Below, piece after piece: positions 505-33,695 of a DNA stretch of 33,695 nucleotides. This DNA is from a virus (Duplodnaviria > Heunggongvirae > Uroviricota > Caudoviricetes). The notes beneath the pieces were generated by a model, which was given only the letters and a program-made list of their open reading frames with translations, was not told the DNA's origin and ran no database searches. The translations under genes were made by a program, and so were the position numbers. The DNA is taken from the IMG/VR virus record IMGVR_UViG_2737471863_000001. One strand, 5' to 3'. The first letter of the stretch is position 1, and every line of letters begins with the position of its first letter.

Positions 505-622
505 AAAAATTTCCTATTCTGAACCAAAGTAAAATTTAAAGAGAACCAGGAATTCTCCATGTATATGTTTATAAAACGATAAATTTTTTCAAGCAAGGCA
601 TGACAAAATTATTTGATACAAA

Positions 623-1357
623 TCAAGATGTGTTTTTGGGGTATGGCTGAATCCTGAATAGCTTAGTGTTTAGTCGCTTTTTTGCGCGCTTATTCAGGAA
701 CCTGATGTAGCGATACTGATTAAATTTGTGTACCACGGCCCGCTCCTTATTAGCCCGCAAATACACGCCTCGTTGCCCTCCACGCTTAATCGCGTTCATC
801 GTTATCTCGTGATACCACTCACCATCCAGCTCGTAGAACGTGCTTTCATGGCTGCCAATAAAATCAAAATTCGACGCCTGATATACCACACCAGCGCGTC
901 CGCAGCGTTCGTCGGCAAAAGACTGAACCCACTCCACTGACGGATACAGTAGTCTGATGGTTTTTAGCGCGTAGCTGATGGCCCGTGATTCAGAGTTGCG
1001 GGGCATGTCGTCGTGTAACCACATGCGGTTCAGTTCCATATAGCTCCGGTTATCCGTTTCCAGCACAACACGACGCCCTGAGTTGGGGTTAAGGGCATAT
1101 CCCCACTGAAGAACGCCAACCAGATCACGTCCGCTGAATACGCCCAGATGCAGGTAGGAGTTATTCACAAAACGGCGGGAATAGTGTTTTGTCTGAATGA
1201 TTGTGCGGGCCAGCCAACAGGATATGGTTTCAACGCGCAACTCCCTTGAACCATAGCCGACAATCCGGCCTTCATACTCAATAACGCAGGGTTTTGTCAG
1301 AATGCGTGATTTCTTCTCTTTTCCCACAATACAGCTCCGTGGGATGCTCTTTGGCAT
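623..1357 (-). CDS. mom: Mom DNA-modification (anti-restriction) protein; start codon uncertain
   Basis: ORF overlaps the 3' part of com in another frame and is the last phage gene, as in Mu. Track ORF opens at TTG 1369; first ATG is at 1357 (cat 1355-1357) with no SD, consistent with Com-dependent translation. Stop TGA at 623-625. Confidence 0.65.
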
Positions 1358-1463
1358 TCGATATGACAATGTAACGTTTACAGCGAGGGCATTTAATTTC
1401 TATATGCTTAAAACCTCCTTTAAACAGTAATTTATTGCAGTTTTTACAGCGAACAGAGTCCAT
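1278..1463 (-). CDS. com: Com zinc-finger translational activator of mom
   Basis: 61 aa from ATG 1463 (cat 1461-1463), AGGGGG SD 6 nt upstream; sequence [15 protein letters not shown]...IKCPRCKR...[11 protein letters not shown] has the CxxC...CxxC zinc finger and closely resembles recalled Mu Com. Confidence 0.8.
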
Positions 1464-1536
1464 GATTCCCCCTGTGTAATAACCAGACATGACCGCCCGG
1501 AGGGCTGGGGGTATTTAATCACAACTGATGCAAACC

Positions 1537-1564
1537 GACGATCGATATGATGTTATCGATCGTC
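1537..1564. promoter_or_regulatory. perfect 11-bp inverted repeat with two GATC sites upstream of com-mom; candidate Dam-methylation-sensitive operator
   Basis: gacgatcgata (1537-1547), spacer tgatgt, tatcgatcgtc (1554-1564); GATC at 1540-1543 and 1558-1561; lies about 75-100 bp upstream of the com ATG in the 92-bp spacer 1491-1582. Confidence 0.45.
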
Positions 1565-1582
1565 ATAAACTATACAAACTGA

Positions 1583-2149
1583 TTATTTAATCACCGATAA
1601 CGCTCTCACCTCGTCCAGTATGGACAGCCGGGAAAGCTGCTCCTTCATTTCACGCTGGCGCTGATAAATCTCGTCATTGCGATCGACCTGTGCCTGCGCC
1701 ATTGCTGTCGCCAGTTCTTCCAGTTCCGGCATTGACAGTTTCACCTGTTGATTATCGGCATCACCCCACGCAAGGGTGGTTCGTGCCGTATCGGATTTCG
1801 CCGCCATTACTACCGGATAAAGACGGGCCATTGAGTCGGGGCCAGCATTCCAGGTGCGGCCATTCCATTCGAACGTGAACGGCAGTGCCTCCTGTTCTGT
1901 GCGCCACGCCTCGATTTCCATCTTTTTGGCATCTTTTGCCGCTGCGATAAGTTCAGGCGTGACTGTAAACGGGGCGATTTCACCCCATTTGCCACTTTGC
2001 AGTTCCTGCCAGATTTGCTGGCCCGTCGGTGCGGTATCGTCTGCTGTCGCTGTATACGGCAGGGCCTCGTCCATCCCCTCAAACAATACGTCGCAGTCAA
2101 TCGCGCCGCTTTCCAGCCAGCGCGCATTTTCGATTTTTTTTACTTCCAT
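1583..2149 (-). CDS. putative tail fibre assembly/chaperone protein of the second fibre module
   Basis: 188 aa, ATG 2149 (cat 2147-2149), AGGTGA SD; sits directly downstream of the large fibre gene. Family assignment (DUF4376-like) is from memory only. Confidence 0.35.
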   Translation of the reverse strand: MEVKKIENARWLESGAIDCDVLFEGMDEALPYTATADDTAPTGQQIWQELQSGKWGEIAPFTVTPELIAAAKDAKKMEIEAWRTEQEALPFTFEWNGRTWNAGPDSMARLYPVVMAAKSDTARTTLAWGDADNQQVKLSMPELEELATAMAQAQVDRNDEIYQRQREMKEQLSRLSILDEVRALSVIK

Positions 2150-30456: not shown

Positions 30457-30488
30457 TTTGTTATTCCTCACAAATAAATAAGCCGTTA

Positions 30489-30716
30489 TTAACGCCAGAT
30501 AATCTGGCAACCATTAAGGCGGGCCGTCCATACGGAACGGGCAACCCCTGATTTATGCTCCATAATCCTGACAGCGTTTCTGACCAGCTCCGGTGGCGGG
30601 CAGGTAATTTCAAGCACCGGGCGGGCCACGCCCAGCCAGGATTCGTTGACGTGGCTGCCGCGCTCCTGTAACCAGCTCTTTACTTCCGTTGCCATTTTGA
30701 TATTCCGTGACATCAT
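30489..30716 (-). CDS. small protein in the position of Mu kil
   Basis: About 75 aa from ATG 30716 (AAGGAGA SD overlapping the B stop); assignment by position and size only. Confidence 0.35.
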
Positions 30717-30729
30717 GATTTCGCTCTCC

Positions 30730-31668
30730 TTACGTGCGCAGCAGGGTTGAAATATCAACGTCGAGGTCTAATTCACGGAAAGCCTGACGCAGATAATCTT
30801 CATTAACACGTTCACCTTTGCCGTGGGCGGTCATGGCCGCAAGGCGCAGCGAGTGGTTCAGGATGCGAAGTGCACCTGGTTTTTGCGCAATCTGCTGTAA
30901 TAATTCCCGCTCGTTTTCGCCGGTAATTTGCCAGGCATCCGCAATGGCCTTTACATCATCAATTTTGGTTTTATTGATTGCCGTCCGTTTGGCAATACGG
31001 GAAAACAGTCGGGCAAATTCAACCGTTCTGTTACCACCGGTCATGTTTGAATAAACGCGGTGATTCCCCATCAGAACAAGGCCAATACGGGCGGATTCCT
31101 GCAACAGGCGGAGTTCTTCCAGAACTTCAGCGCCAAGATGATCAGCTTCGTCGATAATGACCAGCCCCTGCGTACCTTCAAGGCGGCGTCGCAAAGCGCG
31201 GGAGAGCGGCCCTTTGCGGCGCGGTGCGTCATTCATTCCCAGTTCATACGCCAGTTCAGTGAGACATTCCAGAACACTGGCGCAGGATGGGGTAATGGTG
31301 ATCATCCAGACATTGTTATTGGTGCGACGAAATTCGCGGGCTGCTTCAGTTTTTCCCACACCTGGATTACCGCAGATAACAGAAATACTTTCAGTCAGAC
31401 TGGCAAAACGCATACTCGTCCAGATTTGGCGTGCTGTTCTGGTTTCCACAAAACGCGGTGGTTCTGGCAGCTCTGCGGCACGGTGATAGTTCTCCAGCCA
31501 GCGTTCCAGCGTCTGCGCAACACGTTCATTGTCGCCGTTGTACTTGTTATTCACGAATGCGCTTAACGTTCCTGCGGCCACGCCGGACTCGCGGGCAATT
31601 TGTGCATAAGTAGCTTTTTCACTTTCTACAAGCGTGCGCAGTCCTGCGCGAATATCGGAAATATTCAT
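30730..31668 (-). CDS. B: MuB-type ATP-dependent target DNA activator
   Basis: 312 aa, the Mu B length; Walker A motif [11 protein letters not shown] 31668 with GAGG SD; immediately downstream of A. Confidence 0.9.
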
Positions 31669-31706
31669 CTGAATAACCTCGTAATTAAATTTAGTTTAAA
31701 CGTTAA

Positions 31707-33695
31707 TTAAATGGCTTTTTTACGTCTGTTCTGTTCCAGAATATCCAGCGAATGATTCAGATATTCATCACGATCAGTTTCATATTCCTCATCGGGTTCC
31801 TGGTATTTCACCTGCACCGTGTTACCGGAAGGCCGGAAAATACCAACAACTCTTGATTCTGGTGCTGCTGGTTCGGCTATCTGCGGCAGCAGTTCAGCAA
31901 CTTCCAGCGCGTCCATTTGTTTCTGCGCCTTAATGGCTGCTTTAGTTGCAGATTTCAGTTGTTTCTGGCGGCGGCGATATTCACGGCCTGCCGCAGCATC
32001 ATTAAACGCAACAGGTGCCAGACATTCCGCTTCACAGATAAACCGACCGTCCAGGGTGTAGCAATAAACCGTGCTGTGTAGCTGCTGCGGATCAAATCTG
32101 ACCACAACTTTTTTCACGCCGGCATTCATTAACGCCATGTTGTAATAAACGTTTTTTGCACCTTTAAGGGAGCCGCCAACTTTAAGCGTAAACTCGCCTT
32201 TGCGTGAAACGTTCACCGCCTCGGCAGGCAGCAACAGCATCCGTTTTTGTTCTTCGGTCGGCTTACGCACAATCGTTCTGGCGTATTCACGCTCAAAAAC
32301 GTCATCAAACGAAAGTTTGCCTCCGCACATTTCTGTTTCACGACCTGTTCTGGCATTGAACATCGCAACACCTTCAGCAAGGGTTTTCAGAAACAGCTCT
32401 GCATCAACAGCACGGTCGCCATAGTTATCAGGTTTTGCCTGCGGATTTGGCCCCGTATATGCGCCAGCCAGTGCCGGATGCTTATCAACGTATTCCTCAA
32501 GCCCACCAACACCGAAAGCACGTTCAACAGGTTTTGCCTGGCCCCAGCCTTTACCGGCAACAACGCTTGTCCAGTGCATTTTCGCGCCCATCAGTAAAAA
32601 CAGCCCCTTTGGATCGTCCTCTTTCACCTTAAAGCGGTAACGATTGGGCGCGCCCCCCGTCAGCCATTTATTCGCTGCACCACGGGTGTTATCGATGGTG
32701 ATGTGAAAATCCTCCGGGATGCCGTAGCGTGTCACCACATCCATGAACGAGAGGCGAATTGAATCGATGTTCTCGCTTACATCGCAGCGCCAGCCCAGAA
32801 TTTTTCGTGTTTTCACATCCTGCCAGAACCATGTTTTCGGGCGGATCACATCACCGTTAAACCAGCGTACAAAAACGTTATGCAGATAACCGTCGCCGTT
32901 GATCCACTGCATGGCGTCCAGGTGTTCCACAGTTCGCTGTTGTGCCGGTATCAGATGCATCAGTGCATGTTCACCTTCACGGCAGGCAACAACCATTGCC
33001 TCGTCCAGTTGCTGAATCCGGCGAAAGGCCGTGGCACGGGAGGGAATACTCCAGCCATGCTCGCGGGCTGCCAGTTCCAGACGCTCATAACATTTGCGGA
33101 AGGCGGGTTTTTCTGGTCGCAGATAATCTGCAATCAGAAACTGCCAGGCATCCTCGTCAAATTCACTTTTGTGAACGTTGCGACGGGATGCACCACGTCC
33201 ATCAACAAGCGCAGCCGCCCAGTCAGGCTTCGCAAACTTCTGTACCTGGTAATATTTGTCTCGCAAAGTGGATGCGCTGACCTGGTAATGTCCTGCAACG
33301 GTCGCAAATGCCGTTTTCGTTGAAACCCCCTGGTTCAGCATTTCGTCTGCAGCCTGAACCGCAGGCAACCATTTTTCAGCAAGTCTGCGCTGGGAATCGC
33401 TGGCGTTATCCCATTTGCTCCACAGTGCCTCACGATCATAATCATGGGCTTCCAGCGTGGGGCGGGCGATTTCAAAACGGCCCTGGCTTGTTTCAATACC
33501 TCCTTGTTGCAATAAAATTTCAGCACGTAATGCAACAGGAAATGATTTGATATTGAATTCAAATGATACACCTTTAGTACCTGTAACTTGCCTAAACACC
33601 CAGCCTTCTCTTTGTGCCTTACGTGTAATGTTAGTTGCTTGCTTTGGCAAACCAGCAAAACCAAGCAATTCTTTCGCTGTATACCACTCTTTCAT
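31707..33695 (-). CDS. A: MuA-type DDE transposase
   Basis: 662 aa; ATG is the last 3 nt of the window (cat 33693-33695); most of the protein matches recalled Mu A, N-terminal about 70 aa differ. Confidence 0.9.

Follow-up and report, generated by a model that had tools for sequence, protein, structure and literature searches.

What kind of element fills the 33,695-nt stretch filed as IMG/VR virus record IMGVR_UViG_2737471863_000001, and where does that element begin and end? A first-pass annotation, made from the letters of this stretch (hereafter the window), had described a near-complete, inverted Mu/D108-type prophage covering positions 505-33695 and cut off at its left end only. We arrive, with a probability of about 0.9, at a reading that keeps the family and the inverted orientation and revises the extent: the window covers the inner 33.7 kb of a Mu-family phage, temperate and transposable, that is ~35.15 kb long and resident as a prophage in Escherichia coli. 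Judged from its sequence, this prophage is very likely functional. By the affinities of its genes it is also a mosaic, in which a D108/SfMu-type early region and com-mom segment are joined to a late region of the type carried by Klebsiella phage Kp4866-3 and Vibrio phage martha 12B12. The gene content and homologies, like the ends, the target duplications and the many insertion sites, were all read directly from the window and its relatives. A chain of 48 open reading frames (ORFs), all on the minus strand, spans the whole window, and the Prokaryotic Genome Annotation Pipeline (PGAP) likewise placed all genes of the matching stretch on the minus strand in the near-identical prophages of E. coli XJ34 and RM11911. 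Both the uniform strand and the tight translational coupling that had been noted are borne out, the latter by 13 coupled gene junctions (seven sharing 1 nt, TAATG/TGATG, and six sharing 4 nt, ATGA/GTGA).

The transposase gene A (31707..33695, minus strand; 662 amino acids (aa)) combines a D108-type N terminus with a MuA core, as judged by Pfam and alignment, and its ATG at 33695-33693 is the last triplet of the window, just as the first-pass annotation had placed it. The protein is 97.7% identical to A of D108 with 662 of 662 residues aligned, compared with 92% to MuA; the catalytic residues D269, D336 and E392 are kept, and matches to HTH_Tnp_Mu_1, HTH_Tnp_Mu_2, DDE_2 (E value 2e-136) and Mu-transpos_C make up the full MuA architecture. 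Synteny with Mu-like phages and a DDE core in A, the absence of either of which had been named as grounds for giving up the assignment, are thus both present. Most of the divergence from MuA falls within residues 1 to ~70, where the protein is D108-like (four differences from D108 over residues 1-70). Across the core (MuA residues 72-616), three amino-acid differences from MuA stand beside 46 synonymous codon differences, a substitution pattern that indicates strong purifying selection on the transposase. Adjacent to A lies the gene of the MuB-type AAA+ transposition ATPase B (30730..31668, minus strand; 312 aa), 90% identical to B of D108 and matched by AAA_22 and Phage-MuB_C; such a protein next to a MuA-type DDE transposase with end- and enhancer-binding domains is characteristic of transposable phages. 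The semi-essential early region follows (27607..30758, minus strand), comprising kil, gp7-like, gp9-like, gam, gp11-like, two small ORFs and gemA. Its genes with D108 counterparts are 77-93% identical to them, including kil (85%), gp11 (85%), gam (29335-29859, minus strand; Pfam Phage_Mu_Gam; 93%) and gemA (27607-28158, minus strand; Pfam GemA; 84%). The two small ORFs (28136-28525 and 28518-28796) had no D108 match, and their matches were solely to function-unknown PHROGs.

Since the window ends inside the element, neither an attachment site nor a target duplication can be read from it, and the ends were taken from related sequences. The 17-nt MuA end-site consensus YMYNWRAARYRCGAAAR, allowing up to one mismatch, gave no match in the window; the same search gave 3+3 matches in the XJ34 prophage and in a sister draft contig (GCA_012377755.1 AASDNY010000005.1), which coincide with the two ends of the element and all lie outside the window-equivalent stretch. 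This sister contig equals the window save for one base, at 23911, and contains a complete element of 35,149 bp with TG...CA ends, in which the left end (TGTATTGATTCAC) lies 1,266 bp past window position 33695 and the right end (...GCCGCCTCA) 188 bp past window position 1, with three L and three R MuA-site matches and the 5-bp duplication ACTGG on both sides. The complete E. coli genomes XJ34 and RM11911 each hold a 35,153-bp copy with TG...CA ends, inserted in mdtO (duplication AACGC) and gspE (duplication CGGGA), respectively. The termini of transposable phages, TG...CA with multiple transposase sites, are therefore in place in the sister contig and XJ34, and 5-bp duplications mark insertion at three different sites. 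Both edges of the window fall within the element, at gene boundaries, and the lower boundary of 505 and the idea of a cut at the left end alone had to be abandoned. The other expectations about the left side held: the window lacks c, ner and attL, extension past 33695 in the sister contig recovered c, ner and the left end, and the comparison of flanks that had been proposed there revealed the target-site duplication. In that contig c and ner are 89% and 98.6% identical to their D108 counterparts, versus 31% and 51% to those of Mu; with the N-terminal domain of A, all three determinants of D108 immunity type are thus of the D108 kind, c and ner lying outside the window.

The XJ34 and RM11911 prophages are 98% identical to the window overall and 100% identical over 1-9500. 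Ten different host flanks were found beside an identical A protein, and at least eight beside the right end; near-identical copies at so many chromosomal sites imply that the lineage was recently active. Derivation of these sites from one ancestral site by rearrangement is unlikely, given the distinct 5-bp duplications. The copy in the sister contig interrupts a lambdoid prophage, by lom and J, in its Ala/Ser-rich side-tail-fibre (stf) gene; joining its flanks restores an open stf gene, so that one prophage is nested in another with ACTGG duplicated. Aligned with XJ34, the window is 93-98% identical over ~9.5-17.5 kb (by megablast, 97.7% over 1-25000 and 99% over 25-33.7 kb), and the divergence at 9.5-17.5 kb suggests recent recombination between sibling prophages in the tail/head module.

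The alternative that survives best, which we nevertheless consider improbable, is that the element is a defective, immobile Mu-like remnant or a domesticated particle-producing locus. The nesting of the sister copy in another prophage can be cited in its favour, as can the PGAP annotation, which calls two fibre genes partial in the identical sequence of XJ34, the same two genes being uninterrupted ORFs in the window. Further points weigh against a functional temperate phage: its ends, c and ner come from sister sequences and not from the window; Mu C is missing, so that the three-tier cascade of Mu cannot apply as such; and the Mor-like protein is a putative activator of the mom promoter. A remnant is difficult to reconcile, however, with a chain of 48 ORFs that are all open and tightly coupled, with intact ends and 5-bp duplications, and above all with near-identical copies carrying an identical A at 10 or more unrelated chromosomal sites, a distribution that requires recent transposition or infection. 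We accordingly favour a mobile Mu-family phage.

Is that phage then simply a strain of Mu or D108 (genus Muvirus) found as a prophage? This second alternative, which we regard as highly improbable, draws on A, B, gam, gemA and mom, which are 84-98% identical to their D108 counterparts, and on ends closely like those of Mu and D108. Against it, megablast with a database of 50,697 phage records aligned Mu (NC_000929), D108 (GQ357916), SfMu and Yersinia Mu-like phages solely to ~27.7-33.7 kb and 603-1453 of the window, at ~89-91% identity; at ~89% identity, Mu/D108 covered ~23% of positions 10000-33695 and 7% of positions 1-12000, and just ~1/5 of the window aligns to Mu/D108 DNA. The genus guideline of the International Committee on Taxonomy of Viruses is ~70% nucleotide similarity over the full length, a level that the element does not reach with Muvirus. 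The alignment to Mu and D108 that the first-pass annotation had proposed thus succeeded for the early region and com-mom, at ~89%, and failed at the DNA level for the late region. From past mor to the fibres (about 5.3-27.1 kb), proteins are 25-68% identical to those of Mu/D108, mostly 25-50%, examples for D108 being TerL (50%), portal (31%), F (35%), I (26%) and T (39%) among the head proteins and sheath (41%), tube (30%), N (28%), P (38%) and gp47 (37%) among those of the tail. Moreover, tblastn of all D108 proteins against the window found no gin, S', lys, gp23 or G, and no C beyond the single Mor-family gene; the invertible G segment is likewise absent, a GH108 endolysin stands in place of Mu lys, and a G-like (Phage_tail_S) gene is relocated to follow gp36, not lying between F and I as in Mu. 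The canonical Mu gene order that had been claimed is therefore right in broad outline and wrong at these points, and the label Mu/D108-type fits the transposase, c and ner but not the genome overall.

We instead regard the element as a member of the Mu family in its own right, assembled from two sources. What it shares closely with Mu, D108 and SfMu are the sequences of A, B, kil, gam, gp11, gemA, mom and com, the TG...CA ends with L1-L3 and R1-R3 sites and the 5-bp target duplication; from ~1.5 to ~27.6 kb of the window it differs from all three in having no DNA similarity. The late proteins are 38-83% identical to those of Kp4866-3 (OK490420, an unverified record) and 33-68% identical to those of martha 12B12 (NC_021070), and the order of the late-module genes is common to all three: a Mor-type activator, a DksA-type zinc finger, DUF2730, gp27, TerL, portal, F, a gap, I, T, gp36, G-like, gp37-like, DUF2635 and sheath through gp48. 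Against Kp4866-3, most late proteins show 50-83% identity; for the sheath the figures are 75.6% (Kp4866-3) and 55.7% (martha). The likeness ends with the late module, as the transposases of Kp4866-3 (26%) and martha (47%) are distant from A of the window, com and mom had no match in either phage, and fibres and hosts differ. The immunity, transposition, early and com-mom genes therefore derive from the Mu/D108/SfMu lineage and the late-control, lysis, head and tail genes from another, Kp4866-3- or martha-like lineage; the two parts of the mosaic meet close to gemA/mor (~27.6 kb) and immediately upstream of com (~1.5 kb). Other E. coli contigs carry the late module, marked by an identical 202-aa protein, coupled to different early regions, with either 695-698-aa transposases that have weaker MuA Pfam matches or a Mu-type 663-aa A and a 196-aa repressor. 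Early and late modules appear, from these sequences, to be freely exchanged in this group. We also considered whether the best-known Mu-like prophage of E. coli, Sp18 of strain O157:H7 Sakai, which is reported to be efficiently packaged (PMC2669165), represents the same lineage. Like the element, it is a Mu-like transposable prophage of E. coli that carries com/mom and cargo genes close to its right end, but identities are low for A (35%, over a fragment), for B (48%) and for the late proteins (26-60%), and it retains a DNA invertase and the Mu order with G between F and I; by protein identities and gene order it was rejected as a separate lineage.

The exchange of the late module extends to its control genes. 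A single late activator of the Mor/C family (27161..27610, minus strand; 149 aa; Pfam Mor) has 62% identity with Mor of D108 and 32% with C, and tblastn detected no second Mor/C homologue in the window; separate activators for middle (Mor) and late (C) transcription, which distinguish Muvirus, are thus not present. The Pmom-like control region (1464..1582, minus strand), delimited by alignment with Mu and D108, retains two of the three GATC sites of Mu (1540-1543 and 1558-1561), and its activator-site stretch has diverged, C itself being absent. Between F and I, a 213-bp gap (19362..19574, minus strand) contains two terminator hairpins, at 19552-19530 and 19435-19415, and possibly a late, PI-like promoter, a role suggested by its position. 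The exact 10-mer AAATACCCCC occurs in two intergenic regions only, namely the Pmom-like region (1507-1516, minus strand) and the F-I gap (19449-19458, plus strand); allowing one mismatch, nine matches were found versus 1.7 expected. On this sequence evidence the 10-mer may form part of the late-activator site. The hairpin GAAGCCGGTAAATCCGGCTTTTTTT occurs twice in identical form on the minus strand, after mor (27155-27135) and in the F-I gap (19435-19415). The shared 10-mer and hairpin would fit late promoters matched to the replaced Mor-type activator. The F-I gap and a second non-coding gap at 17423-17493 both lie near the middle of the genome (centre at about window position 17387), and either could hold the counterpart of the central strong gyrase site of Mu; neither gap shows sequence similarity to that site, a comparison in which sequence alone is not decisive.

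Downstream of gp48, where Mu has the G segment and gin, two fibre cassettes (1583-6281) are arranged in the same orientation. The first (4741..6281, minus strand) encodes an S-like tail fibre of 331 aa (5286-6281, minus strand), the N terminus of which is 39-48% identical to D108 S and which matches phrog_1833 end to end, and a U/U'-like assembly chaperone (4741-5271, minus strand; Caudo_TAP; 29% identical to U'). The second (1583..4781, minus strand), of the lambdoid side-tail-fibre type, stands where Mu has gin and the S'U' half of the G segment; it encodes an 874-aa fibre (2157-4781, minus strand; Pfam phage_tail_N) and a DUF4376 protein (1583-2149, minus strand; Pfam DUF4376), and its nearest relatives are tail3/tail4 of Rac-SA53 and phiP27 (87-88% DNA identity over 1640-2145). 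Neither gin nor S' was detected by tblastn against the window, and a search of 1-7000 for gix-like or long inverted repeats returned just short chance pairs, so the gin-driven invertible G segment of Muvirus has no equivalent here. The second cassette varies in close relatives, which have a 577-aa or an 865/874-aa fibre and either possess or lack the DUF4376 gene. The invertible G segment and gin are replaced by these co-oriented cassettes, which may give the virion two receptor specificities simultaneously, instead of the inversion switch of Mu.

The remaining late genes were assigned from Pfam and PHROG matches. Following the activator, lysis and small late genes occupy 24151..27075 (minus strand), from the GH108 endolysin (26479-27075, minus strand; Glyco_hydro_108 and PG_binding_3) through a 99-aa ORF, and include a gp18-like gene, a 136/193-aa ORF, a TraR/DksA zinc-finger gene (zf-dskA_traR), DUF2730 and a gp26-like gene. 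No Mu lys homologue was found in the window; the 202-aa ORF is tentatively holin-like, its match to GTA_holin_3TM being weak (20.5 bits, under the cut-off of 24.8). Packaging and head genes (17494..24034, minus strand) encode a gp27-like small terminase, TerL, the portal, an F-like protein, the I protease/scaffold and the T major head protein, matched by Phage_Mu_Gp27, Terminase_6N, Portal_Mu, Phage_Mu_F, Mu-like_Pro and Mu-like_gpT; they are 26-50% identical to D108 and 59-80% to Kp4866-3. Head-tail joining, contractile-tail and baseplate genes (6285..17422, minus strand) comprise a 103-aa ORF, gp36, the G-like gene, a gp37-like gene, DUF2635, sheath L, tube, chaperones, tape measure, N, P, gp45, gp46, gp47 and gp48, in the gene order of martha 12B12. 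Those with a D108 match are 28-52% identical to it, several ORFs having no such match, and identities to Kp4866-3 are 51-83% except for the tape measure (38%). At the other edge of the late region, com (1278-1463, minus strand; 73% identical to D108; Pfam Zn_ribbon_Com) and mom (623-1357, minus strand; 96% identical to D108; Pfam Mom, E value 1.4e-75) overlap by 80 nt. Searches with Rfam (gathering thresholds), ARAGORN and Tandem Repeats Finder gave no matches in the window.

Beyond mom, the ORF at 1-504 (minus strand), which the first-pass annotation had left outside the prophage, proved to lie inside the element and to travel with it. That it is host DNA, with the prophage ending near 505-622, can be dismissed despite its lower GC content (42%) and the lack of a Mu/D108 counterpart, because the ORF is found with the element at insertion sites that include mdtO, gspE, pta, the otsB side, ppsA and sufB, at a constant distance of 188 bp from the conserved TG...CA end carrying R1-R3, and 505-622 contains no MuA sites. 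We read it instead as a typical phage accessory ('moron') gene for a predicted envelope protein, located between mom and R3 in the mom-attR interval. It encodes a putatively secreted protein of 167 aa, with a predicted signal peptide ending AQA/QW and two conserved cysteines, and falls in the lowest-GC kilobase of the window (1-1000). Having an extra gene in this interval is a likeness to D108, in which the same slot is filled by gp56, to which the protein is unrelated. Relatives with an identical tape measure lack the gene, host DNA starting ~80-175 bp after mom, and among 5,426 complete E. coli genomes five carry it.

Close homologues of the accessory protein form 11 clusters, located in lambdoid prophages between lysis and terminase genes and also in another Mu-like phage; a profile search extended the set to 246 representative clusters, and one more distant relative found in this way occupies the same lambdoid lysis-terminase gap. 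In all contexts examined, the family lies inside a prophage at positions typical of accessory genes. Neither the protein nor 105 of its relatives had a Pfam match, to IalB or otherwise; the protein had no tblastn match in the 50,697 phage records and no PDB sequence match, and PADLOC assigned no defence system to it or to the small early ORFs, a weak GajB match (E value 0.007) being dismissed. An AlphaFold2 model built from 106 sequences suggests an IalB-like fold, an earlier 10-sequence model having been poor (predicted local distance difference test score, 56); the protein differs from IalB (invasion-associated protein B, PDB 3dtd) in sequence, with 11% identity. Upstream, a 118-bp AT-rich gap (505-622, minus strand) is a putative promoter region, in which inspection by eye picked out two putative signals, a σ70-like TTGCTT-17-TATAAA (596-568) and a Shine-Dalgarno sequence (514-511), while a σ70 scan of 505-622 under a strict rule returned no promoter. 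It is conceivable, if rather doubtful, that the protein is an envelope factor expressed by the lysogen, acting for example in superinfection exclusion or a change of the cell surface, and that the mom-attR gap serves as a cargo slot of Mu-like phages.

For the life cycle of this phage, the regulatory cascade, the way DNA is packaged, the activity of Mom and the use of the fibres are inferred. On the model of the homologous phage Mu, the repressor c, encoded just outside the window, would hold the early operon silent; on induction, the DDE transposase A would pair both ends and the AAA+ ATPase B would deliver target DNA, and the genome would replicate by repeated replicative transposition. Gam would protect DNA ends. 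The single Mor/C-type activator would then switch on the lysis, head, tail and mom genes, packaging would be headful, starting at the left end, and Mom would modify adenines against restriction.

Mu-like prophages and their modular exchange are textbook material, and the element is already machine-annotated gene by gene in RefSeq genomes; its general biological weight is low. It does illustrate cleanly how the early/mom backbone of a Muvirus has recombined with a late module of foreign origin, which implies that the late promoters, that of mom among them, co-vary with the Mor-type activator. The element further shows that the host-range switch of Mu by G inversion is dispensable, and it places an uncharacterised family of secreted phage proteins in a defined, mobile setting.

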